From a virus (taxonomy: Duplodnaviria; Caudoviricetes): a DNA stretch of 64,000 bases. The stretch lies in the IMG/VR virus record IMGVR_UViG_3300021400_000063; one strand, written 5' to 3'. The first letter of the stretch is position 1; each line of letters opens with the position of its first letter. The notes beneath the pieces were generated by a model, which was given only the letters and a program-made list of their open reading frames with translations, was not told where the DNA came from and did not search any database. The position numbers were made by a program, and so were the translations under genes. This document shows positions 4,385-59,586 of the stretch, piece by piece.

Positions 4385-4651
4385 TATATTTAATAAATGT
4401 ATATGTAACAATTATGTATATATACATTTATTTGTAACTGGATTAATCCCAGTTTCTTTAATGAACTGATCCCTAGTCAACTGTTTGGTGTCAACTAAAG
4501 GGAATTTAGTTCCATGATATTCGAACGGTACACTAAAATAATAAGTGTACATTTGGTTATCATTCATAGTTTTCACCTCCTTGGTAAAAGCTATATTTAG
4601 AGAGGGGTGCTACAACACCCCTCTCTATCTTTTATCCATAATTATAATATA
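4385..4651 (-). repeat. ~270-bp duplicated cassette, copy 1 (promoter, leader hairpin, 51-aa ORF, 3' hairpin)
   Basis: Near-identical to 26559-26827. Confidence 0.95.
4412..4567 (-). CDS. 51-aa small protein, copy 1 (MNDNQMYTYYFSVPFEYHGTKFPLVDTKQLTRDQFIKETGINPVTNKCIYT)
   Basis: GGAGGTG RBS; reading frame conserved with the copy at 26588-26743. Confidence 0.8.
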   Translation of the reverse strand: MNDNQMYTYYFSVPFEYHGTKFPLVDTKQLTRDQFIKETGINPVTNKCIYT

Positions 4652-14392: not shown

Positions 14393-14523
14393 ACAAAATT
14401 TCTCCTTAATAAAATTATAATATTAAGAACTCATACGAATTCTTTACATTATAATAATATATAAAAGAAAAAAAAGAGGAGCACATCCGTGTGCTCCTCT
14501 TTATTGTTTCAGAATTTTAACAA

Positions 14524-15828: not shown

Positions 15829-15925
15829 AGGTGGCCTCCTTAAATTGTGCTTGAGTTTATCAATCTAATATAAACATTAAATTGTTTTACTCATTATAAT
15901 AATATATTAAAGAAAAATAAATAAA

Positions 15926-16008
15926 AAAGAATGACTGGATTCGAACCAGTGACCTTTCCAAGGCCCTTTCGGGCCATAGGAACGCTCTACCAACTGAGCT
16001 ACATTCTC
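15926..16008 (-). ncRNA. tRNA-like RNA with anticodon loop replaced by a GAAA-capped helix (copy A)
   Basis: Acceptor GAGAATG/CATTCTT, D arm GCTC-AGTTGGTA-GAGC, T arm ACTGG-TTCGAAT-CCAGT; central arm TTCCTA-T-GGCCC-GAAA-GGGCC-TTGGAA. Confidence 0.85.
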
Positions 16009-16061
16009 AGAAATAAAATATATAAATAAAATTCCTGGCTATATTAGCCAGGAATCTTTTA

Positions 16062-17339
16062 TTATTTCAAATCATCAGGATCGAAAACACCTTCAAGAGA
16101 TTTATATTCATCTTTAGAGTACAAATCGTAATCTGTGATTCCTAAAGCTTCTTCAGAAGTTTCTTTAACTTCCAATTCATCTTTATTATCACCAGTTAAT
16201 ACACCGCCTGCAGAAGCTTCTTCATTGTGTTCTGTTTCAGCTTCAGTAGGTTTAGCATCTTTAACTTCAGAATCTTTTCCAGCATCTTCTTCAGTTGTAG
16301 TTTCATCTTCTACAAGACACTGCATACAAACACCATCTTCACCAGTTTCTTCTAATGAATAAGCAGGATCATCATACCAAGCTTCTGTAGAATTTGTATC
16401 TGTTTCAGTAGGTTTAACTTCAAGGTCATCTTTATTATCAGGAGTTACAACTCCACCAGATGAAGCTTCTTCATTATGAGCAGAATCATCCTGAGGAATA
16501 TTAATATCTGTAACTTCGGAATCTTTTCCAGCATCTTCTTCAACTGTAGTTTCATCTTCAACCAAATCAGTCATAGATACTTCATCAGTTTCATTAGAAA
16601 CTTCTAAATCTTCTGAAGATTTAATAGACGGATCAATGACACCATTACAGAAACGTTTAGCAGATATCTGTCCATTTTCATTTTTAAAAAGAGCCCAAGA
16701 ACCAAATATTCTCAAATCCTTAGATTCATTTTTATTTTTAAGTTGTTTACCAATTGCATAATATGCAACAGATGATAATTTTAAAGCTAACTGTGCTGAT
16801 AAGAATCCTGCTGTTAAACCACCAATTTTAGCAGTACCAAATCCAGCTGTCAAACTACCTGTTTTTCTATATACAGCGTTAGCAGCTCTTCCTGCAACAG
16901 AACCGCCCAATTTACACAATGCTGGGAAAGATACACCAAATACAATTAAGAAAACAACGCATAAAGCAACATATTGTTGTTGTGTAACAACTGTGTCTAT
17001 AGAAATAATATTGACACCGTTAACTTTTCTAACTTTAATATATTTCAAACATTCCTTAATAACAGAATCTTCAACTTTCATAACACCACGCTGTGCTAAT
17101 AACATTTGAAGTATATTTGTAGGAAGTTTTTTAGTGTCAACTGTAAAATTTAAACTTAACTGTTTTTTAGCAGCATACTGTTTTACTTTATCTATCGCTT
17201 TCAAAACTAATGGATTTTTCCATATTTCTTCTTCGCTAGCAACTCTAAATGATCTAATTGATGGTAAACCAAAACCTTCTTGAGAAAGTTCATGATATGT
17301 CAACCCAACAAATGTGTTTTCATTTATATTTCCAGACAT
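16062..17339 (-). CDS. Probable virion (inner head) protein with acidic C-terminal ~55-aa duplication
   Basis: LVEDETTxEEDAGKDSEV...HNEEASxGGVxTxDNKDxLEVK occurs twice; many S-x-E motifs resembling phiKZ-type head protease sites. Confidence 0.65.
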   Translation of the reverse strand: MSGNINENTFVGLTYHELSQEGFGLPSIRSFRVASEEEIWKNPLVLKAIDKVKQYAAKKQLSLNFTVDTKKLPTNILQMLLAQRGVMKVEDSVIKECLKYIKVRKVNGVNIISIDTVVTQQQYVALCVVFLIVFGVSFPALCKLGGSVAGRAANAVYRKTGSLTAGFGTAKIGGLTAGFLSAQLALKLSSVAYYAIGKQLKNKNESKDLRIFGSWALFKNENGQISAKRFCNGVIDPSIKSSEDLEVSNETDEVSMTDLVEDETTVEEDAGKDSEVTDINIPQDDSAHNEEASSGGVVTPDNKDDLEVKPTETDTNSTEAWYDDPAYSLEETGEDGVCMQCLVEDETTTEEDAGKDSEVKDAKPTEAETEHNEEASAGGVLTGDNKDELEVKETSEEALGITDYDLYSKDEYKSLEGVFDPDDLK

Positions 17340-17353
17340 AAAAATTCTCCTTA

Positions 17354-18580
17354 TTATTTAAGAGTCATTATATACATAATCAAGTATAAATAAATAGCTT
17401 GTTTAAAACTTCCGATTGTACCACGATTAGCAGCCATAGTATATTCAGGATTATACTTAAGAATTAATTCACCAAGAGTCTTTTTAAGATCTATAATGAA
17501 AATATCGTAAGTATTTGATACCGAATAAGCTTTTGAGCATTTAGCAGCAAATTCTTTAGAATGTATACTATCAACGCTCTTTTTCATAGAAATTAACCAA
17601 TATGAAACTATATCAGTCATAATTCTAAGAAGCATTTCACTATCACCAGATTCTCGTATATTTTTAAGTACAATTTTAGTTTTAGTACAAGAAACTTTAT
17701 TTGAATGTTTACAAGCACTTTGAATTAATTGTTCACGGATAACTGTATCTTGAACAAATGTATTCATAAGTTTCTTACTTGTAATATCTACAGCATTTGA
17801 TACTGAATCAGAAATAACATAAAATTCATCTCCTTCTTCATTATGCGCTGTTAAATTTTCCGTTTTAATACCAAGTTTATGATCGTGAGAATATAAACAA
17901 AGTACAAAGAAATTTTTCATTTGAGATTTAAATTTATTAAAAATATCATTTACCCATTCATAAGTATCATTATCTTCTGCTTTTTCTCGTTTAGCCATTT
18001 GAGCAAAACGTGGAGCTTCTTCAATCGTGAATGCTTTATTCTTAATAATTTCGTAGATATTTTTAAATTTAATAATATCGGACTTATTACTAAGATGCGC
18101 AATAGCATATTCTGCATCTTGTTCAGGGAAAGGATGTGCAAAAATATATTTCTGAGACCAAGAATATAATCTCATACCAAAATACAACTGTATAATATGT
18201 TTAGGACTTCTATCAGAATTAATATCAGGATCAAGTTTATACAATTTTACGAGCTCATTATGTTTAACTGTATAAAATTTTGAAAGGATATACAATAGTT
18301 GATAAAGAGGTGTTGTTCCTTTTGCGTTAGGTTTTATAGTATCTGACTCAGAAATTAATTTGATTAAGATACTTTTATCTACACCAGCAGCATCCATAAA
18401 CGCATTTTCATCAACAGCTGTAAAAATTAGTTTGTTACTCATGTATTTAGTTTGTAATACATCAGCTCTAGCATTAATATATTTATTCACACATCGCACA
18501 ATTGCGGGGAAGTTTTTAATAAAATCATTCCCATAAGTAGCAATTACATTATCATAGATATAAGTTTTAGGTGTAGCCAT
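17354..18580 (-). CDS. Hypothetical protein
   Basis: 408-aa ORF; AACA-N6-TA motif abuts the ATG (possibly leaderless). Confidence 0.7.
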   Translation of the reverse strand: MATPKTYIYDNVIATYGNDFIKNFPAIVRCVNKYINARADVLQTKYMSNKLIFTAVDENAFMDAAGVDKSILIKLISESDTIKPNAKGTTPLYQLLYILSKFYTVKHNELVKLYKLDPDINSDRSPKHIIQLYFGMRLYSWSQKYIFAHPFPEQDAEYAIAHLSNKSDIIKFKNIYEIIKNKAFTIEEAPRFAQMAKREKAEDNDTYEWVNDIFNKFKSQMKNFFVLCLYSHDHKLGIKTENLTAHNEEGDEFYVISDSVSNAVDITSKKLMNTFVQDTVIREQLIQSACKHSNKVSCTKTKIVLKNIRESGDSEMLLRIMTDIVSYWLISMKKSVDSIHSKEFAAKCSKAYSVSNTYDIFIIDLKKTLGELILKYNPEYTMAANRGTIGSFKQAIYLYLIMYIMTLK

Positions 18581-18645
18581 ATATTAAAATGTTTCAAAAA
18601 AGAAAAAAAAATAAGAAAGAGAATTCATCTCTTTCTTAGTAAACA

Positions 18646-18957
18646 CTATTGAAACAATTCAAAACGAATATAATAATGTTTAAACATAGGCTCATTAACA
18701 TATATTAATTCTACTTCACAATCATATTGTATACAACATAAAGTTTCTACAACACATATAGTATCGGAAGCATTATTTTCATCGAATTTATTCAACGCTT
18801 GATTTAATACTATTTTTATTGAGCCTATGAAAGATTCTTCTGAAACTTTCGGATGATTGCCCGCATTTTGTATACATTTCACAATAGCTTCAGTTAAACC
18901 ACCACATATAGCAGCTTCTTTATTAGGAGCTACACCAGCGTAATACACATTTCCCAT
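18646..18957 (-). CDS. Hypothetical protein
   Basis: 103-aa ORF, GAGGAGG RBS, early promoter. Confidence 0.7.
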   Translation of the reverse strand: MGNVYYAGVAPNKEAAICGGLTEAIVKCIQNAGNHPKVSEESFIGSIKIVLNQALNKFDENNASDTICVVETLCCIQYDCEVELIYVNEPMFKHYYIRFELFQ

Positions 18958-19054
18958 ATTAACTTACCTCCTCATATAACATGGCTATTAATATAATATA
19001 TAAAAATAAACCTGGGTATTTCACCAGGTTTATTTTAATCGTTACATCCATGAA

Positions 19055-19555
19055 TTATAATTTGGATTCTCGAAGTTTTGATGTTATTGATTTTGTTTTA
19101 ATAGCATCAACAATATCAACATGTGGCGAAACAGAAACTGCACAAGGGTTACAATCTTCATCATATTTTACAACATAACAATTACTTTTAGTTTCAATAA
19201 AATCGTTATCTAACAATAATGATGCAACTAATTGTTTTTCTGAATCAAATATCAATTCCAATTCTTCTGGAGAATATTTACCATTGAATTTTTCACTTAA
19301 TCGTTTATAAAACTCTGTAATATGAATCATAGGTTGTTCAAATACAGTTTCAAAATACGATATCAATGATTTAATTGAATATCTTTCAGGATCGGATGCT
19401 GTATTTAAAATATTACGAATGAGTTCATGTATTTTATCATTATCAAGTCCACTCAATTGTGTTCTAATAGTTTCTTTATCAACTCTCATTGTAAATGCTA
19501 CATAGTCGACAATCGCATTATACAACATTTCATCTTCTAAAAATGTACATTTCAT
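19055..19555 (-). CDS. Hypothetical protein
   Basis: 166-aa ORF with RBS. Confidence 0.7.
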   Translation of the reverse strand: MKCTFLEDEMLYNAIVDYVAFTMRVDKETIRTQLSGLDNDKIHELIRNILNTASDPERYSIKSLISYFETVFEQPMIHITEFYKRLSEKFNGKYSPEELELIFDSEKQLVASLLLDNDFIETKSNCYVVKYDEDCNPCAVSVSPHVDIVDAIKTKSITSKLRESKL

Positions 19556-19558
19556 AAG

Positions 19559-20089
19559 TTATCTTTCTCCTCTATCAGATTTATATGAACCAAGTTGAAT
19601 ATAATAAGCTCGGCTTTCAATTTGAAGATTTTTATTTAAAATTGAAAGTTCGAAACCCTTATCAACTCGACCATTTTTAAATTTAATTAAACCTTCTTTC
19701 CAGATGTATAATATATTTCTATACACCATTCCAAACATAATAATATCTTCACCATCGAAATTAAATTTTCTTTTTGAGAAAATACTTTTCTTTGATTCTG
19801 TCGACATTATACACATAGATTCAGGAATTGAAGGTTTACATGTGTTTTCAAAATTAATTACATCATATGATTGACCGAAATCAGAAGTCATAAAATATGA
19901 TTCAAACATATAACTATTAAATCCTGATTTTGGTACAACGAAACCAACATCCATAACTTTTAAAAGTTTTGCATTTGGTAAAACATTAACAACATTTTTA
20001 TTTTTATTATCAGGATCATATAAAGGTCCTTCTAATAATGGTAAATTACAATTTTTTAATCGTAATTCGTTCGCTTCATTTCTAGTCAT
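19559..20089 (-). CDS. Hypothetical protein
   Basis: 176-aa ORF with RBS and early promoter. Confidence 0.7.
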   Translation of the reverse strand: MTRNEANELRLKNCNLPLLEGPLYDPDNKNKNVVNVLPNAKLLKVMDVGFVVPKSGFNSYMFESYFMTSDFGQSYDVINFENTCKPSIPESMCIMSTESKKSIFSKRKFNFDGEDIIMFGMVYRNILYIWKEGLIKFKNGRVDKGFELSILNKNLQIESRAYYIQLGSYKSDRGER

Positions 20090-20214
20090 ATTTACTTACC
20101 TCCTCAAATATAACATATTCATAAATATAATATATAAGATAAAAAATAAAAGAGCTGTGGGAAAACTCCCACAGCTCTAATAAGATTTCACCTCTGCGAA
20201 TAACATTCGCATAG

Positions 20215-20287
20215 CTGGGTCGACAGGATTCGAACCTGTGGAATGTTGGCACCAAAAGCCAATGACTTACCGCTTGTCGACGACCCA
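20215..20287 (-). tRNA. tRNA-Gln(TTG)
   Basis: Cloverleaf; acceptor TGGGTCG/CGACCCA; anticodon arm TTGGC-TTTTGGT-GCCAA. Confidence 0.92.
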
Positions 20288-20289
20288 AT

Positions 20290-21075
20290 GGTGGAAGATC
20301 ATAACGCTATCTTCCTGTTATCAAAACACTTCAATACATCAACGAGAGGTCGAATTGTTTCGATAATCGAATCTAAAAAGGACTATTCTAACTCGATAAC
20401 TAGTATTCAGATTATATACAATCATTAAAGATATAGCTAGGCCCATATAACGGGTTTTACCATTATAAAAACTCATAAATTTAGGCTATGAAAGTAAATT
20501 ACCGCATTGATACCTCCACTATATGAGAGAGTACCCATTTGCCTCTACGATACAAATTTTACCTAAGTTTACCACCCAATCCATATCCACTTTACGAAAA
20601 CAAGAGCTAACATCTAGTACGACTAGAAGAGATTGTTATTCGATTAGAGTTTCCATTTCACGAGCGTTGAGGAACTTACTACTTTCATTATAAAAACATT
20701 CCGATCCTCGCAACCGAAATTACGACAGAATGGATTTATGTTCAAAAGGATGACGGTTTATCCATAACTCATAAAAACTCCAATCCAACTCGTTTATGTG
20801 CACGATTAGAGATTTAAAAGTCCGTCAAGGTCTGGACTTAATACCGATACGAATATTTGTCTAAGCTTCGACAAACATTGTAGTTTAAATGAAACAAATA
20901 CACCATCTATATTCATTTCATCTTAGCCAAGTATATCAAGATTCATCTTTTATAGATAAACCATTGAGATCAAAAACATGGAGCCCGTCAAAAATAAAAA
21001 TTAGTTTATTGCCTCCAAGGGTGTGACTACCCCTGCTTTTCAATAACGAAACTCCACTACCAGTAACACTGGTTT
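20290..21075 (-). ncRNA. Candidate large structured ncRNA inside the tRNA cluster
   Basis: ~790 nt with no credible ORF, less AT-rich than neighbouring spacers, many short hairpins, bracketed by tRNA-fold genes on the same strand. Confidence 0.55.
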
Positions 21076-21077
21076 AA

Positions 21078-21158
21078 TGGACTATATGAGACTCGAACTC
21101 ATGACACTTCCAAGCCCTTTCGGACCACAGAATACTCTACCAACTGAGCTAATAATCC
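21078..21158 (-). ncRNA. tRNA-like RNA with anticodon loop replaced by a GAAA-capped helix (copy B)
   Basis: Acceptor GGATTAT/ATAGTCC-A, canonical D and T arms; central arm TTCTG-T-GGTCC-GAAA-GGGCT-TGGAA. Confidence 0.85.
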
Positions 21159-21279
21159 ACCTACAATCTTTTCGGTACTACTTACTCACATATAGATTTA
21201 AAATATAACTACTAAGACTGACAGCCATTTCATTATACTAATAGGATTGTAGAGATAAACATATATGCTTTCATTTATC

Positions 21280-21352
21280 TGGGCCATCTAGGATTTGAAC
21301 CTAGGACAGACGGATTATGAGTCCGCTTCTCTAACCACTGAGATAATGGCTC
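21280..21352 (-). tRNA. tRNA with CAT anticodon (Ile2 or elongator Met)
   Basis: Cloverleaf; anticodon arm GCGGA-CTCATAA-TCCGT; one acceptor mismatch; lacks initiator GGG/CCC anticodon stem. Confidence 0.88.
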
Positions 21353-21449
21353 AAAAAAATAAGGTAAAATATCTACAGTTTAAACAACTTACACTTTACC
21401 TTATTCAATGTATTTAAATACATTATATTATTTCGATAGTTTTAAAAAA

Positions 21450-21930: not shown

Positions 21931-24900
21931 TTAAATATGTTCTACACGATCACCAATATCACCCATTCTACCCTGATTCATATAATTTACAGTACCAGGA
22001 TATCCACATACACGTCTAGAAACATCCATCTGATGAGGATCTGTATTTCCACAACATGAACATTTCCAAATACGTTTATTTGTAATAGGATCACGAGCCA
22101 TATCAATATGATCAAAGTTTTTACAAATGTAACAATAGTCTGGTTTAGTATTTGCTTCGAAATACATAATATTTTTATAACCGGCTTCAATTACTTTGTG
22201 GAAAGCTTTCATATTATTGATGATGTTTCTTGAGCATTCGAAATAAGAAACAGCTCCACCAGTTGTATACTTCTGGAATGGTGCTTCGAATTCTAATTTA
22301 GAAATAGCATCGATCTTTTCTTTTACATTAATCTTTTATACCCTCAGTTTCCTGATATTTTAAAGGGAATAGACTATCTCATTAATTGTTAAAAACAATT
22401 ACTTTGCACTTCGCAATAAGGAATTTCACCTTAAAGCTACTCTACTCGGTTATTCCGAATTATATAAAATAATTCATATCCTTTCGATAGTCGTTACACT
22501 TCTATTCAATTCGTTCAAATTTATACCCTTTAGCACTTTTGGATCTACCATTTAAACAATCACTTACTGCTGCCGGATGAATACCATGAGAGATGGCAAA
22601 ATCAGTAGCATTTTTATGAATTTCGGTATGTCCATCAGGATATATAGCTTTGAATTTAACAGTTCGAGATGTGTTTTTAGGTTGATCTTGTTTAGGAATC
22701 CAAATACAATTATCGGGATCATAGTTACCATTTACATCTTTTCTTTCTAACGAAACATTATGTGATCCAATTTTATTAGCTAATTCTAAATATGAATCAT
22801 ACATTGCATCGTAAAAATCGATAAAGTTTTTAAATGCTTCACTATTTATACCCCTATTAACATACCTATCAGCATGTTCGTAATTTGGATTAGTGGTTCT
22901 AGTACGCATTGCTTGCCATCTATCATAAAATACAGGATCTAATGTTTTTAAACCCTTTCCACAAGATTTATGAAAAATTCCTGCAGATCTATAGATTGTA
23001 GCACCAAGCATTTCTTTGCGTCTACCACATTTTTGACATTCCATGACGTAGTATTTACTTATATAAGGATACTTTCCAGTATGCCTTTTTTTAATTATAT
23101 CTACGCATTTGTAGTCACCCATCACATCTCCAATTGAAATAACATAAAACGGATGCATATTAAAACTCCATAAAATAAAATATATTATTTATGTTACGAA
23201 CTTCTTTTTAATATACATTATGTTACGAATTGAAAATTTAGCACGGTATTTCCATGTCCTTAAAAAGGATTTAGGATCTCTTACCACTTTAATCTTTCGA
23301 TTTAGTTGACCGTTAGCCGGATATTAATCGTATCCGACACCCTAGATTTCTAGGTTCACAAAGTTTTCCATATGCATTTACATACATAGGCCACCTCATT
23401 ATTTATACTCGTATAATGTTTATGCAACATTTAAAAGTTGATGGTACGAGTTAGTCACGTAATCTTTATCGGTAATGCCTTCAATAATACCATGACGTCT
23501 TTGTAAAGCTTTTGCGAATTCAAATGTTGCAGATTCTTCAGGAGTTCCATAAACAGAATAACCATAGTCATCTTGTTTATTCCATTCTTCACACTTATCA
23601 GCCATATGTTTAACAATAGAAAGAGCAAAATCTCTAGCAGATGGATCTGTATGAGGTACACCTTTAAGAGCCATAACAGTTTCATACAAACCTACATAAC
23701 CTAATGATGTAGTAGAATATCCGCCAGTTAAATATTTATCGATTGTTTCACCTGGTTTAAGGCGAGCAATTGCTCCGAACTGCCAATGTACTGGAGAAAC
23801 ATCGGATTTAGTACCAAACAAACGTTTTTCAATACGCTGTTTATGTGCTTTATGACAAAGTTCAAGACGTTCATCGAGAAGTTCCCAGAAATCTCTTCCA
23901 GTTTCTTTAGAAGTAAGAGCAACATCAGGAAGATTAATTGTAACAACGCCTTTGTTGACTGTGGGCGTAAACACATAGTAGACTATCTCTTCAATAATAA
24001 ATGTAAATTTATCATTGTCGTGCGCTTCGAATAGTATCAATCTCTATTCTACAGGGCTACACTCATCACCCTTAGTCGTTACACCTTTATTCTTAAAAAA
24101 GAATACTTGGCACGGTATTATTTCTTTATTCAATAAAGAACCTTCACCGTTAGCAATGGCTTATGTTTTTAAGCGACCATCACACCCCTTTGATATGGGT
24201 TCACACGATTTAACGACGGCTCAACTGCGTTAGTTAACCGTCCCCAGAATTTATAATTACCATTTTCATCTTTCCAAGGAGAAAGGAATGAACGACAGTT
24301 ATGACTAAGGAAAAAGTTTGCCATAAAATGGCCTGTTTCAGTAGTAACATCATAAACAAATTCTGGAGTTTCAACACATTCTTTTATAACAACACGTCTA
24401 GCAATAGGTTTATACTTATATTTTTCATTGCCGGTGTCAAGGCTATCATAAATACAAAGTTCTTTTCCAAGCATATCTTCAACTTTACATTCATATGCTT
24501 TTTCAGGATCATAGAATTTTCCTTCTTCAGAAATGTCGGCAACAATCATAGGATGATCATTTGTAGCATAAAGAGAATGATATTCTTCACCATTTTTAAG
24601 AATTGTAAGTTCATACATCTTAAAACTTGATCCGACATTTTTATTCATCATAGTACATTTAACAAATTTTTGAACACTATTGTCGAAAATTTCAATATTA
24701 AGATTCTTAAGATTTAAATCTTTATTAGGATTACCAGTTTGTCCAAATTGATCTTCTTCTTTAAGATTGAATGTATTTTTAATACTGTTATACATACCAC
24801 CGATACAACCAACATATGTTTCGCCATTAATTTTATACATAACATCTGTATCAGGATGTACAGCTCCCATACAGGCAAATACATTTCCTTCTTTAAGTTC

Positions 24901-26442
24901 ACGCATAACTTTAGCAGAAATATAATCTGGAGCTAAACGTTCAACAGAACATCTTTCTGCAATTTCAGTAAGATAATAATATTCAGAATTTTCCCAAACA
25001 TTATTTTCATCAAGTACATAAAGTACTTTAGGGAAAGCTGGTCCAAAGTATACACCAACTTTATTTTTAACACCAAGAAGTCTCTGTCTTAAGAAAGCTT
25101 CAATTACCATAGCGTAATCTTTACGATCTTCTTCAGGAGCATCATTAATGTTAATATATGTAGAAACAAAGGGAGACTGCATTTATTCCCTTCTCCAAAC
25201 GTTATTTATTATTCCGTTTGGATTAGACTATCTCTTCAGCCTATTATTTATATAAATAATAGGTTGGGTGGCACTTCGCAATAAGGAATTTCACCTTAAA
25301 GCTACTCTACTAAGTTCCATAGATAATATCTATGTCTGTTCGATAGTCGTTACACCTTTATTCTTAAAAAGAATACTTGGCACGGTATTAGCATAAGATA
25401 TAATAAAATGCTTTCACCGTTAGCTATTCATAAAAAAATGAATAACACCCCATATTTATGGGTTCACCACCTTTTCACTTACATGTTACCATGTAAGGCG
25501 GCCAGTCAGTTAACCGTTTGTAGTCATATGAGTAAGAACTTGATATTGAAGGAGTTGAATGCCATCATCGATGTGTTGTTTTAACTGCATTTCAACATCA
25601 TCTAAAAGTTGTTCTTCAGTATAAGTCATTCCAATATCTTCATAACGTTTACGAGTACGTTTAATAAATTTTTCACGAGTAATTTTAACAAATTGAGCAA
25701 TATGCCAAAGATTTACAGTTTGACCACCATATTGACCTGATGCAATATGTGATTCAATTTGTGTAGCAACAGTACATGCGACATCAAATGATTTAGGAGT
25801 ATCAATGAATACACCATTGATAACTGTACCATTTTTATACATATCATCAAGATTGATTAAACAACAATTAAATAATCTGCGTGCAGAATATCCCATATCG
25901 TGAATCTTGATAATCTTTTCAGCATTTGCTTCCAATACATCTTTACTGAAAACTTCTTTATAGTCAAGTAATTCTTTATCCAATTCACAAGCTGCATAAT
26001 CTGCTTGTGTAGAAAGTAAATATGCATTTTTATTTGCATTTTCCTGTTGAATATCTTCTGAAGTACATTCATAGATATTCCAAGCTCTTTCCATAAGAGC
26101 TTTATATTTAGATGCTAATTCAGCATTAAGTGCTGTAGTATCACCATCTCTTTGTAAAGCATGTGTATAACGATAAATTGTAAATGCTTTAGCTAACTCC
26201 CATGAATATACAGAAATTTCTTTTTCTACCAAATCTTGAATTTCTTCAACATTAAATTGGCGATTATAACTCTTGATTTTTTCAACAACATTTTCTGTAA
26301 TTTTATCAATAGTTTCATCTGAAATTTTAAAAAGATCATCAAGTGCATTATTAGCCTTAGCTATTGCATTCCTAATTTTAGAAGATTTAAATAACTCTTC
26401 TTGTCCATCGCGTTTAATAACGTTGGATTTAAATTCGTCCAT
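21931..26442 (-). CDS. nrdD: Anaerobic (class III) ribonucleotide reductase; 4 exons (26442-25513, 25179-24237, 23958-23441, 22332-21931) plus intein
   Basis: N-terminal ATP cone (VIKRDG); spliced junctions restore TTNG|QSPF, GR-F|NKGVVTINL, TNSYH|INV; MG-CRSFL; C-terminal CxxC pairs and glycyl-radical motif RVCGY. Confidence 0.95.
22333..23440 (-). mobile_element. Group I intron 3 of nrdD (1108 nt) carrying a homing endonuclease
   Basis: Upstream exon ends in U, intron ends in G; core motifs GTAACGACTA and GAGATAGTCTA shared with the other introns. Confidence 0.9.
22502..23158 (-). CDS. Intron-encoded HNH homing endonuclease with C-terminal NUMOD1/IENR1-like DNA-binding domain
   Basis: RWQAMRTR..., SLERKDVNGNYDPDNCIW motif; C-terminal AVSDCLNGRSKSAKGYKF. 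Confidence 0.85.
   Translation of the reverse strand: MHPFYVISIGDVMGDYKCVDIIKKRHTGKYPYISKYYVMECQKCGRRKEMLGATIYRSAGIFHKSCGKGLKTLDPVFYDRWQAMRTRTTNPNYEHADRYVNRGINSEAFKNFIDFYDAMYDSYLELANKIGSHNVSLERKDVNGNYDPDNCIWIPKQDQPKNTSRTVKFKAIYPDGHTEIHKNATDFAISHGIHPAAVSDCLNGRSKSAKGYKFERIE
23959..24236 (-). mobile_element. Group I intron 2 of nrdD (278 nt, no ORF)
   Basis: P1 GACGGU pairs with GCCGUC, U.G at the splice site; terminal G; shared core motifs. Confidence 0.9.
24298..24864 (-). mobile_element. 189-aa mini-intein with Ala1, inserted before the catalytic Cys of NrdD
   Basis: CMG|AVHPDT...ATNDHP...VYDVTTETGHFMAN..SHN|CRSFL; no endonuclease domain. Confidence 0.9.
25180..25512 (-). mobile_element. 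Group I intron 1 of nrdD (333 nt, no ORF)
   Basis: Exon ends GGU, intron ends G; P1 CGGU/GCCG; ~40-nt block identical to intron 3. Confidence 0.9.
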
Positions 26443-26558: not shown

Positions 26559-26827
26559 TATATTTAATAAATGTGTATATACAACAATTATGTATATACA
26601 CATTTATTAGTTACTGGATCTATACCAGTTTCTTTAATGAACTGATCCCTAGTCAACTGTTTGGTGTCAACTAAAGGGAATTTAGTTCCATGATATTCAA
26701 ATGGTACACTAAAGTAATAAGTGTATGATTGATTATCACTCATAGTTTTCACCTCCTTGGTAAAAGCTATATTTAGAGAGGGGTGTTCCAGCACCCCTCT
26801 CTATCTTTTATCCATAACTATAATATA
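26559..26827 (-). repeat. ~270-bp duplicated cassette, copy 2
   Basis: Near-identical to 4385-4651. Confidence 0.95.
26588..26743 (-). CDS. 51-aa small protein, copy 2
   Basis: RBS-supported ATG at 26743; 4 aa differences from copy 1. Confidence 0.8.
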   Translation of the reverse strand: MSDNQSYTYYFSVPFEYHGTKFPLVDTKQLTRDQFIKETGIDPVTNKCVYT

Positions 26828-31560: not shown

Positions 31561-31629
31561 TTGGTGTGATAGGATTTGCACCTACAATCACGGAAATTGT
31601 AATTTCCATTACCTAAGATTTACACACCA
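31561..31629 (-). ncRNA. D-armless tRNA-like RNA (family 2, copy A)
   Basis: Acceptor TGGTGTG/CACACCA, T arm GTAGG-TGCAAAT-CCTAT, linker TAAATCTTAGG, stem ATGGAAA-TTACAA-TTTCCGT. Confidence 0.7.
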
Positions 31630-57368: not shown

Positions 57369-57440
57369 AGGTGAGTAAATTATTAGGATATAGATTTACT
57401 TATCTATATAAGTTGTAGGTTCGAATCCTACTCTCACCAA
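57369..57440 (+). ncRNA. D-armless tRNA-like RNA (family 2, copy B)
   Basis: GGTGAG/CTCACC acceptor, linker TAAATTATTAGG, stem ATATAGAT-TTACTT-ATCTATAT, T arm GTAGG-TTCGAAT-CCTAC. Confidence 0.72.
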
Positions 57441-59120: not shown

Positions 59121-59586
59121 ACGTAAATATGAAAGATTTCTACTGAATTTATTGATTGAAAGAACGTTATTTATTTATAATATAGTTCTTTCTACTCAAT
59201 TTAATATAACGAAAAAATATAAGAATAAATGTATACGTTTATTAGTAGATATCCAAAAATATTTCAAAAATATAAGATATCAAAATTTTGATGTAAAATC
59301 TGTAAAATATGAATTTAATCAATATAAAATTTTAATGAATAAAACTGATTATTTGTTGAAAACATTTGATAAAATTGATAAAAATAAAAATATCAGAAAT
59401 ATTTGGTGTATAAATTTCAGCAAATATAATACTGAAGGACAATTTCCAATGTTTTATAATCCTAATTATGATAAAAATTATATTAGAGATTTTGTTAAAT
59501 ATTTCATAAATTTAACTAATATAAAATCTTTGATAGATGAAGAAATGAAAATTATTTATTATACTAATAAGTTTTATTTATTATAA
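59113..59586 (+). CDS. Hypothetical protein
   Basis: 157-aa ORF. Confidence 0.6.
   Translation: MHKRKYERFLLNLLIERTLFIYNIVLSTQFNITKKYKNKCIRLLVDIQKYFKNIRYQNFDVKSVKYEFNQYKILMNKTDYLLKTFDKIDKNKNIRNIWCINFSKYNTEGQFPMFYNPNYDKNYIRDFVKYFINLTNIKSLIDEEMKIIYYTNKFYLL

Follow-up and report, generated by a model that had tools for sequence, protein, structure and literature searches.

Closed-arm, anticodon-less tRNA-shaped RNA genes in a group of sheep-rumen phages

The usual explanations for tRNA genes in phages are codon supply and evasion of defences that cleave tRNA. tRNA-like elements also act as processing signals, such as mascRNA at the 3' end of MALAT1 and the tRNA punctuation of mitochondrial transcripts. 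Besides, the stable RNAs C and D of phage T4 (species 1 and 2) are reportedly small, without an assigned function, and co-transcribed and co-processed with tRNAs. In phages, tRNAs are found beside or inside the GOLLD and ROOL RNAs (bioRxiv 10.1101/2024.12.08.627333; PMC5737381). YrlA (RF02553) is a tRNA-like Y RNA bound by Rsr/Ro60 (bioRxiv 10.1101/312249), and b7a-tRNA is a predicted Band-7-associated tRNA-like RNA (Burroughs and Aravind 2016, per bioRxiv 10.1101/312249).

Here we describe two RNA genes, RNA1 and RNA2, of a large sheep-rumen phage (IMG/VR record IMGVR_UViG_3300021400_000063). The whole stretch analysed, 64,000 nt, is called the window; the sequence recurs identically in seven or more independent assemblies from sheep rumen, so it is not an assembly artefact. 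It was compared with its nearest complete relative (G001), a sister phage (L001), related lineages including L237, L238 and L239, and two unrelated phages, L020 and L080 (234 kb). Both RNAs keep all the features of a tRNA except codon reading and are conserved, which argues that the tRNA shape itself is in use.

Two tRNA-shaped genes with a closed anticodon arm

Candidate genes were scored with the Rfam tRNA model (RF00005, gathering score 29), and tRNA calls were made with ARAGORN. The first-pass annotation had reported two tRNA-like RNAs with canonical arms, and both were recovered, on the minus strand:

15926..16008 (-), RNA1, 83-nt tRNA-shaped RNA gene; 55.3 bits with the Rfam tRNA model, 100.9 bits with model R1
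21078..21158 (-), RNA2, 81-nt tRNA-shaped RNA gene; 46.5 bits with the Rfam tRNA model, 91.4 bits with model R1
15962..15975 (-), GAAA-capped distal helix of RNA1 (GGCCC-GAAA-GGGCC), replacing the anticodon loop; direct reading
21113..21126 (-), GAAA-capped distal helix of RNA2 (GGUCC-GAAA-GGGCU) with one bulged U ahead of it; direct reading

On sequence reading, RNA1 has the acceptor stem GAGAAUG/CAUUCUU, a discriminator U (U73), canonical D and T arms and no encoded CCA, and RNA2 has the acceptor stem GGAUUAU/AUAGUCC and a discriminator A. The Rfam tRNA model aligned the acceptor, D and T arms of both, giving each a cloverleaf with a 7-bp acceptor stem, and set 19 nt of each opposite 9-11 positions of the anticodon-loop region. 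The minimum free energy fold of RNA1 is a cloverleaf with an extended arm (-30.1 kcal/mol, z -2.8). Direct reading of both RNAs found the nucleotides for tertiary contacts complete (U8, A9, A14, G15 with C48, G18 and G19), and purine 26 with purine 44, G46, U54, U55, C56, A58 and G53-C61 are kept as well; U8, A14, G15-C48, G18, G19, U54, U55, C56 and A58 are invariant columns in the alignment of relatives. Both pass the RF00005 gathering score, a trivial match, and no other Rfam family was matched (gathering score; E up to 1), in line with the earlier view that they belong to no named family. A tmRNA was rejected, since neither ARAGORN nor Rfam found a tRNA-like domain with a tag reading frame. 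The window also holds two further odd tRNA-like elements.

A 5-bp anticodon stem with a 7-nt loop, U33, anticodon and purine 37 is absent from both RNAs. Direct reading of the arm gives UUCUG/U/GGUCC-GAAA-GGGCU/UGGAA for RNA2, with a clean single bulged U, and UUCC/UAU/GGCCC-GAAA-GGGCC/UU/GGAA for RNA1, with a 3x2 internal loop for which the alternative drawing has a U.U mismatch, one A-U pair and one bulged U. Of the arm as first described, the shared GGYCC-GAAA-GGGCY holds for both copies, but the bulged U is strict only in RNA2. Because the closed GAAA-capped helix replaces the loop, U33 and the anticodon, RNA1 and RNA2, as read from their sequences, cannot decode, just as the first-pass annotation had stated. 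Its expectation that tRNA finders would return undetermined or pseudogene calls was wrong: ARAGORN calls Pro(tgg) and Thr(ggt). We rejected these calls as artefacts, since the triplets consist of the bulged U and the first two G of the distal helix and so fall inside a closed helix. Such mislabelling as tRNA-Pro and tRNA-Thr distorts surveys of phage tRNAs and codon usage.

The ARAGORN anticodons might suggest intron-containing tRNA genes, in which the helix is spliced out to leave a normal 7-nt loop, and giant-virus tRNA-Tyr genes with short introns did appear in the same pattern scans that found closed-arm RNAs elsewhere. This explanation is hardly credible at all. In both RNAs, no excision of 8-10 nt restores U33, an anticodon and purine 37 on direct reading; there is no bulge-helix-bulge motif, and a group I intron would need a far longer insert. 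Searches of G001 found no tRNA_int_endo splicing endonuclease, RtcB or Rnl2-type RNA ligase (the Rnl1 ligase search also gave nothing in G001, but its control matched in no genome), and a short form of RNA2 in related phages (4 bp plus GARA) has no room for an anticodon.

Conservation of RNA1 and mosaic origin of RNA2

Seven related lineages of rumen phages carry RNA1 in one shared intergenic position, and it is still present where the neighbouring protein has fallen to 72% identity. Its acceptor stem, discriminator U and arm are nearly invariant across lineages and its T stem covaries freely; the whole intergenic region is highly conserved too. Covariation was assessed in two sets. In nine sequences, 99.1% of stem cells are paired, a level reached by none of 500 shuffles (33-54% in slid controls), and both partners have changed in 10 of 25 pairs; CCC-GAAA-GGG is unchanged throughout, and the pair at the foot of the distal helix goes from G-C to A-U in L237. 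In seven sequences that take in the unrelated 234-kb phage, both-sided changes reach 15 of 25 pairs, including three in the extra helix.

The stem covariation indicates that these are not decaying genes. Functionless tRNA pseudogenes left by turnover of the tRNA cluster are conceivable in that the gene content of the cluster shifts between phages: L001 and L239 have a tRNA-Lys that the window and G001 lack, G001 carries a Lys-like gene (a 6-nt loop with CUA and a damaged D stem, at the place of the window's tRNA-Met), and the window has its two odd elements. We consider decay very unlikely, because about 99% of stem cells are paired and double changes are numerous, the insert forms a clean, stable helix that does not look like random damage, RNA1 persists beside a diverged protein, and all tertiary-contact nucleotides are retained. 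These comparisons mark RNA1 and RNA2 as genuine RNA genes of tRNA shape that are under selection and do not decode, belonging to a group of large sheep-rumen phages, and the earlier preference for selection over decay is borne out.

Over nucleotides 8-65, RNA2 departs from the RNA1 body of L001 at only six positions, all of them pair-preserving transitions, which points to gene conversion and not to slow co-evolution. The RNA2 acceptor stem is that of a conserved tRNA-like RNA of 68-75 nt with a GCAG-GARA-CUGU arm. RNA2 reads as a mosaic, in which the acceptor stem of the RNA2 locus is joined to a body copied from an RNA1 variant. The first-pass annotation had found stronger conservation in the odd arm than in the acceptor and T stems. 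For the two copies in the window this is true, but the implied cause gives way to gene conversion, and the compensatory changes noted between the copies are largely due to the mosaic origin of RNA2.

Gene neighbourhoods and possible roles

The RNA2 locus forms an RNA-only unit, in the order promoter-like motif, leader, RNA2, 790-nt RNA, tRNA-Gln and terminator:

21279..21353 (-), tRNA-Met(CAU), upstream neighbour of the RNA2 unit (ARAGORN, Rfam)
21232..21243 (-), promoter-like TATTAGTATAAT, about 70 nt upstream of RNA2; putative promoter
20288..21077 (-), ORF-free conserved 790-nt stretch, likely a large non-coding RNA, flanked 5' by RNA2 and 3' by tRNA-Gln
20214..20287 (-), tRNA-Gln(UUG), 3' boundary of the 790-nt RNA (ARAGORN, Rfam)
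20151..20178 (-), terminator-like hairpin closing the unit; 12 pairs, then a T-run

The 790-nt stretch shares 94% identity with G001 and 89% with L001, and a nearby protein has 62% amino-acid identity. Rfam gave no match to it, even with E values up to 10 allowed, and no minus-strand ORF of at least 50 aa lies inside it; a 68-aa frame (20082..20288) merely touches its first base. A second copy of the TATTAGTATAAT motif lies at 59569(-), and the spacer between motif and RNA2 is conserved in G001. If this promoter is used, RNA2 has a 5' leader that RNase P must remove. A tRNA-shaped element always stands 1-6 nt before the start of the 790-nt RNA: in G001, L239, L237 and L238 it is the short-arm RNA of 68-75 nt, with a stem of only 4 bp, a few nt before the start (CCAGUGUUACUGG); in L001 a true tRNA-Lys(UUU); in the window the hybrid RNA2. 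Since these three forms alternate, it is the tRNA shape that is kept, not a particular arm or anticodon.

RNA1 adjoins no non-coding RNA and sits between a terminator and a promoter:

16028..16058 (-), terminator-like hairpin belonging to the upstream gene, with RNA1 following 19 nt later
15892..15925 (-), T-run immediately following RNA1, and behind it the recurrent phage promoter motif TTAATATATTATTATAATG, which belongs to the next gene

The hairpin is found in five lineages with a conserved stem and a variable loop. The TTAATATATTATTATAATG motif is invariant in five lineages and also follows terminator hairpins at 14454(-) and 45265(+).

Our leading interpretation, with a probability of about 0.4, is that RNA1 and RNA2 are translation-inert tRNA-shaped modules, which RNase P and RNase Z would excise and which would act as handles setting the ends of neighbouring RNAs. 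They would be transcribed within longer precursors, and host enzymes would take them for tRNAs: RNase P would make the 5' cut, RNase Z or exonucleases would act behind the discriminator, and the CCA-adding enzyme would follow. Being recognised in this way, they could serve as cutting handles, or "punctuation". RNA2 would define the 5' end of the 790-nt RNA and tRNA-Gln its 3' end, and RNA1 would be a free-standing copy closing a late transcription unit, between the terminator hairpin and a strong promoter. The closed tetraloop-capped helix may preserve the L-shape that processing enzymes need, while sealing the arm may prevent miscoding and remove a single-stranded loop attacked by anticodon nucleases and other RNases. 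Ordinary tRNA genes would be equally good as punctuation, so these reasons for sealing the loop are conjectural. Of the three roles first offered for the RNAs, the processing signal is the best supported, at least for RNA2, which abuts a bounded RNA at a conserved position; for RNA1 it is not evident, as it is unclear from the locus what a free-standing copy would punctuate. The reading also gains from the absence, in G001, of partner-protein genes of known tRNA-mimic systems; the decoy or inhibitor role first proposed finds no support there. A pure signal should not need the near-invariant sequence of RNA1, although its whole intergenic region is conserved too, and in L020 a similar RNA lies behind a promoter motif of its own. 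Should the cutting-handle reading hold, these genes would illustrate how RNA-only operons are built and matured in large phages, among them a new conserved RNA of 790 nt.

Closed-arm RNAs also occur in other phages. L020 has an RNA1-like gene (UUCA/C/GCCC-GAAA-GGGC/A/UGAA, U73), and no protein shared with the window was detectable in the 11-kb locus compared. In L080 an extended-arm tRNA-like RNA is present twice and another closed-arm one once, and these alternate with short non-coding segments in a stretch with no ORFs of at least 80 aa. A pattern scan gave about 20 other closed-arm look-alikes in unrelated viral contigs, with caps including GAAA, UUCG, CUUG, CUCG, GUAU and UGCG, which fits closure of the arm, rather than a specific loop sequence, as the selected property. 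Their neighbours include no recurrent Pfam family, and PTH2 lies beside only one of the roughly 20. The conserved RNA1 and RNA2 are probably handles for host tRNA-cutting enzymes or tRNA mimics.

It is possible that the mature CCA-ended RNA, above all RNA1, is a trans-acting mimic, which binds and titrates a protein that recognises the tRNA body and, for lack of a loop, is itself neither cleaved nor used by the ribosome. Candidate targets are a tRNA-directed nuclease or toxin of host defence, such as the anticodon nucleases PrrC, RloC, PARIS AriB and retron PtuAB or acceptor-end modifiers (CapRel- and MenT-type toxins), or a host tRNA-handling enzyme. Several of the above observations suit such a mimic: a single RNA1 gene kept at one locus in seven lineages, near-invariant in acceptor, U73 and arm while the T stem covaries; the same design behind its own promoter motif in L020; the spread of closed-arm RNAs among large phages; and the gain of an RNA1-type arm by RNA2 through gene conversion, which suggests that the arm is worth spreading. 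However, no binding partner is known or encoded nearby, the anticodon loop on which known anticodon nucleases strongly depend is absent, the RNA-repair genes that usually mark anticodon-nuclease pressure were not found in G001, and the cap varies in the wider class. Protein-binding mimics would represent a new RNA-based interference with host translation or defence. It is also possible, though less likely than not, that RNA1 is the founding member of a dedicated phage family of CCA-ended, anticodon-less tRNA mimics acting in trans as sponges or inhibitors of a tRNA-recognising host defence or factor; if so, the closed-arm design would be a general RNA-based device for counter-defence or host takeover and not a processing handle.

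Alternatively, the tRNA body might provide only stability and processing for a bulged GAAA-capped helix as the working part, shown to a protein or docking by its GNRA loop with an RNA receptor, for instance the 790-nt RNA. The GAAA cap is common to all members of the window's phage group (GAGA in one short-arm copy), the distal helix is almost invariant in sequence, the arm has moved between loci, and RNA2 adjoins a large conserved RNA. Still, we think such a cargo function unlikely, because no receptor or partner is identified, the short form of RNA2 has only its 4-bp stem, caps differ in the wider class, and the arm matches no motif in Rfam.

Comparison with known tRNA-like RNAs

YrlA, too, mimics a tRNA in its D/T elbow without having an anticodon loop. 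It has a closed acceptor end, a bulged helix that binds Ro60 and a gene beside rsr, whereas the acceptor end of RNA1 and RNA2 is open. A YrlA or Y RNA identity was rejected on this ground, with no match to the Rfam YrlA family and no TROVE protein in G001; a Pfam scan of 40 window ORFs found no Ro60 (TROVE) either. A Ro60 site in RNA2 was also rejected, since GGUCCGA pairs with GGGCU and not with the UUGAC strand of such a site. b7a-tRNA is similar in being predicted non-coding, close to a real tRNA and presumed to act outside translation. Linkage to the Band-7 and RtcB genes is its defining feature, and it was rejected because both are absent in G001, where the searches also found no Ro60, PTH2 or CCA-adding enzyme. 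The T4 RNAs C and D are a lead only, likened by description.

With RF00005 tRNAs, RNA1 and RNA2 share the cloverleaf, the D- and T-arm sequences, the tertiary-contact nucleotides and the setting in a phage tRNA cluster; they differ in having a GAAA-capped closed helix instead of the 7-nt loop, U33 and anticodon. Relative to the known processing signals, RNA2 is a complete cloverleaf with a sealed anticodon arm, and its cleavage is putative; the 790-nt RNA matches neither GOLLD nor ROOL in Rfam. As in those systems, RNA2 abuts a long conserved RNA in a phage tRNA island, with tRNA-Gln at the other end, and a true tRNA can take its place, as it does in L001.

Two tRNA-shaped RNAs with a sealed anticodon arm

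The data show that the window carries two selected, non-decoding tRNA-shaped RNAs, in which a closed helix with a GAAA cap replaces the anticodon loop:

16008..15926, minus strand: RNA1, 83 nt, 55.3 bits with the Rfam tRNA model
21158..21078, minus strand: RNA2, 81 nt, 46.5 bits with the Rfam tRNA model

The gathering score of this model is 29. The acceptor, D and T arms of both RNAs align to it in full, and the anticodon loop region takes up 19 nt versus 9-11 model positions. Direct reading gives the arm as UUCC/UAU/GGCCC-GAAA-GGGCC/UU/GGAA in RNA1 and UUCUG/U/GGUCC-GAAA-GGGCU/UGGAA in RNA2, in agreement with the alignment, so the tRNA-like D, T and acceptor arms with a GAAA-capped central arm are found where the first-pass annotation had placed them. 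We give hardly any credence to an intron-containing tRNA. All the nucleotides of the classical tertiary contacts are present in both RNAs, and the minimum-free-energy fold of RNA1 is a cloverleaf with the long arm. CCA is encoded in neither RNA, nor in the adjoining ordinary tRNAs. Both also lack G3.U70, the mark by which AlaRS can recognise and charge an RNA with no need to read an anticodon. A tRNA finder had been expected to return undetermined or pseudogene calls, but ARAGORN gives Pro(tgg) and Thr(ggt) instead; these calls are artefacts, since the triplets consist of the bulged U and two G of the distal helix.

The window has a G+C content of 24-34% and genes of phage type. Among them are nrdD (NrdD), which introns and an intein interrupt, endonucleases of the HNH and I-HmuI kinds, and genes for a GyrB-like protein, a dUTPase and an M23 peptidase. 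The nearest record is G001, a viral contig of 276 kb with a completeness rating of 99%. Contigs from several sheep-rumen assemblies carry exact copies of a neighbouring protein; the source is therefore a large, uncultured phage of the rumen. The cow-rumen-4 RNA motif has two matches below threshold (26748-26804, minus strand, 38 bits; 4572-4628, minus strand, 31.6 bits; gathering score 48.5), which fits an origin in the rumen. Two group I intron matches, also below threshold (23959-24246, 33 bits; 25215-25504, 31 bits; both minus strand), fall within the split nrdD, adjoining an ORF for an HNH/I-HmuI-type endonuclease and a segment that resembles an intein.

Conservation and setting of RNA1

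We searched IMG/VR, JGI metagenomes and GTDB genomes (241 million metagenome records and 185,579 prokaryote genomes), and the exact motif SGYCCGAAAGGRC occurred in a tRNA frame only in this phage group, in the unrelated 89-kb viral contig L020, and in L021 and L028; on reading the sequence, we judged the L021 match to be chance. Among cultured phage records, the closest match reached only about 73% similarity in the tRNA body. Deeper relatives were reached through homologues (100% to 70% identity) of the 434-aa protein downstream of RNA1, and in every lineage (the window, G001, L001, L239, L234, L238 and L237) RNA1 lies in the same intergenic gap of 232-236 nt.

Across these lineages the acceptor GAGAAUG/CAUUCUU, the discriminator U and CCC-GAAA-GGG are near-constant, the T stem covaries (ACUGG/CCAGU, GCUGG/CCAGU, AUGGG/CCCAU, GCGGG/CCCGU, GUGGG/CCCAU), the foot pair of the distal helix is A-U in L237 instead of G-C, and the arm junction varies as UAU/UU, GU/U or U/U. 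In the nine-sequence set, pairing is kept in 99.1% of stem cells and both sides have changed in 10 of 25 pairs; none of 500 shuffles matched the observed pairing, and slid-partner controls pair at 33-54%. When two copies from L080, an unrelated 234-kb phage whose distal helix reads GGGUA-UAU-UACCC, were included, 15 of 25 pairs had changed on both sides, three of them within the extra helix, in an alignment that was fitted to the model and is thus biased toward structure. Covariation with pairing kept indicates that RNA1 is not decaying, which bears out the earlier claim of selection. The same stem covariation among the orthologues leaves very little to the view that these RNAs are pseudogenes. 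Because RNA1 is conserved in sequence and also occurs in an unrelated phage, two other readings deserve serious weight: a mimic acting in trans, which is possible though we would not expect it, and a hairpin cargo scaffolded on a tRNA body, which we consider unlikely.

The terminator-like hairpin of the upstream gene ends 19 nt before RNA1, and directly 3' of RNA1 there is a T-run and then the promoter motif TTAATATATTATTATAATG, which also follows other terminator hairpins in the window. The intergenic region, with its strong AAGGAGG ribosome-binding site, is near-invariant in five lineages. The RNA1-like gene of L020 is preceded by a terminator and a promoter motif of the same type, and followed by the ribosome-binding site that serves a small ORF. 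From these settings, the RNA1-type gene stands last in a unit in this phage group and within a 5' leader in L020, both being places where ordinary tRNA genes can occur. Related motifs recur in the window:

15892-15911 (minus), 14454 (minus), 45265 (plus): AT-rich promoter-like motif, TATATATTATTATAATG and variants
27001, 44421, 50471, 57596, 60898: similar promoter-like motifs

Their usual place is directly after a terminator hairpin and T-run, and this AT-rich motif is a marker of the unit boundaries of the phage.

The gene upstream of RNA1 evolves fast and is a local hot spot of divergence, and its flanking genes are 98-99% identical in the same phages:

16062-17339, minus strand: gene directly upstream of RNA1, 48-62% identity between close relatives

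The RNA1-neighbour proteins (434, 425 and 408 aa) had no Pfam match and no PDB sequence match, their hits being limited to PHROGs of unknown function; the protein atlas gave no informative match, and an AlphaFold model from this set, with a mean pLDDT of 45, was of too low quality for a structure search.

The mosaic RNA2 and the adjoining 790-nt stretch

At the RNA2 site, G001, L239, L237 and L238 carry a tRNA-like RNA of 68-75 nt, whose anticodon arm is only GCAG-GAAA-CUGU (with a GAGA cap in L239) and whose acceptor GGAUUAU/AUAAUCC has the covarying variants UGACUAU/AUAGUCA and AGAUUAU/AUAAUCU. The window RNA2 keeps the short-form acceptor stem, and its nt 8-65 equal the L001 RNA1 body except for six transitions, all of which preserve pairing. 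The most economical reading is that this body came by gene conversion from an RNA1 variant. The compensatory changes proposed between the two copies come largely from this mosaic make-up, an RNA2 acceptor joined to an RNA1-type body.

In L001, tRNA-Lys(UUU) occupies the RNA2 position. The order in L239 is tRNA-Met, tRNA-Lys, short RNA2, long RNA and tRNA-Gln, and this adjoining pair argues against RNA2 being a tRNA-Lys(UUU) orthologue, and so a Lys decoy; it also means that RNA2 was lost in L001 and tRNA-Lys in the window and G001. At the place of the window's tRNA-Met, G001 has a gene (L002 2071-2145) whose acceptor and T arm are those of the phage tRNA-Lys. Its D stem is damaged, and its loop is 6 nt long and includes CUA; fully zipped, the arm would read CGUCC-UCUA-GGACG. 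A broken amber-suppressor-like tRNA and a further closed-arm variant are both candidate identities.

Downstream of RNA2 is a long stretch without ORFs:

20288-21077, minus strand: ORF-free stretch, 790 nt, from 1-6 nt past the RNA2 discriminator to the base before tRNA-Gln

It contains no minus-strand ORF of at least 50 aa, has no Rfam hit at E values as high as 10, and shares 94% identity with G001 and 89% with L001, far above the conservation of a nearby protein. Its 3' end consists of a 7-bp hairpin (GGAAGAU...AUCUUCC), ACCA and one U, followed by tRNA-Gln. Some 70 nt upstream of RNA2 is the promoter-like TATTAGTATAAT; on the 3' side of tRNA-Gln is a hairpin that resembles a strong terminator. 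This stretch is likely a new large phage non-coding RNA. Its 5' boundary is formed by three alternative tRNA-shaped elements (the short form, the hybrid and a real tRNA-Lys) and its 3' boundary by a real tRNA. GOLLD and ROOL are large ornate phage RNAs known from tRNA islands, sometimes with tRNAs inside (bioRxiv 10.1101/2024.12.08.627333; PMC5737381). The 790-nt RNA, too, has tRNA-shaped elements at its borders, and it matches neither of the two in Rfam.

Our tentative preference, with a probability of about 40%, is that RNA1 and RNA2 are a processing module. Its best-supported part is that RNA2 would act as a processing handle fixing the 5' end of the 790-nt RNA, because of its position and the interchangeability of tRNA-shaped elements there; RNA1 fits this reading less well. 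A sealed loop would keep the fold needed by RNase P, RNase Z and the CCA-adding enzyme, and would prevent miscoding and remove the usual target of anticodon nucleases.

Closed-arm RNAs elsewhere and known systems

A scan of IMG/VR for a class-I D arm and T loop spaced 4-13 nt beyond normal found at least 89 distinct cloverleaf-consistent sequences. Among the matches listed, giant-virus tRNA-Tyr genes of the intron type form the majority, and about 20 of 89 have a closed anticodon arm; the two types were sorted by hand, automatic sorting by folding being unreliable. The arm in these 20 or so has 4-5 pairs, in many cases a single mismatch or bulge, then 3-7 further pairs and a small cap (GAAA, UUCG, CUUG, CUCG, GUAU and UGCG among others). 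Since the caps vary across this wider class, it may be closure itself, not the cap sequence, that matters. They lie on unrelated contigs, often within tRNA clusters, and no Pfam family recurs among 92 neighbouring ORFs (terminase twice, integrase twice, PTH2 once). One contig has an array:

L080 231-676: ORF-poor, two near-identical extended-arm look-alikes and a third closed-arm RNA

Its extended arm is UUCG/C/GGGUA-UAU-UACCC/U/CGAA, the third RNA has a 4-bp stem and 5-nt loop, and the spacers are non-coding segments of 85-125 nt. Two further look-alikes (L219 42-118 and L209 2786-2865) have the acceptor GGGGAAU/AUUCUCC with G3.U70 and A73, the alanine identity set, with CCA encoded in L219; they might be charged without an anticodon, like tmRNA.

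Two weaker elements were observed in the window:

57370-57439, plus strand: tRNA-like element on the 3' side of tRNA-Asn and tRNA-Ser (Rfam, 27 bits; R1, our search model for RNA1-type RNAs, 23 bits)
31561-31629, minus strand: degenerate tRNA-like element (R1, 19 bits; G001 counterpart 30 bits in Rfam)

The former, kept in G001 at 206078-206147, lacks a D arm; its acceptor stem and T arm are good, and where the anticodon arm would be it has a stem of 8 bp and a 6-nt loop (UUACUU). The latter has the T loop UGCAAAU. Its anticodon stem, long and AU-rich, can be folded either with 8 bp and UACA or with a 7-nt loop that has ACA.

A search of the G001 genome found no TROVE/Ro60, RtcB, PTH2, Rnl2-type ligase, CCA-adding enzyme, splicing endonuclease or Band-7 protein, and a Pfam scan of 40 window ORFs found none of these proteins; the Rnl1 search had no match, and its control likewise matched nowhere. 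A likeness of RNA2 GGUCCGA to a Ro60 site was rejected, as the opposite strand is mismatched and RNA1 reads GGCCCGA. Known tRNA mimics are the tRNA-like domain of tmRNA, YrlA, mascRNA and viral tRNA-like structures; in Rfam, neither RNA1 nor RNA2 matched YrlA or tmRNA. In the literature searched, we found no description of anticodon-less tRNA-shaped phage genes with complete cloverleaves and a sealed anticodon arm. What is new here is the history of the locus, the mosaic RNA2 and the link to the new 790-nt RNA.
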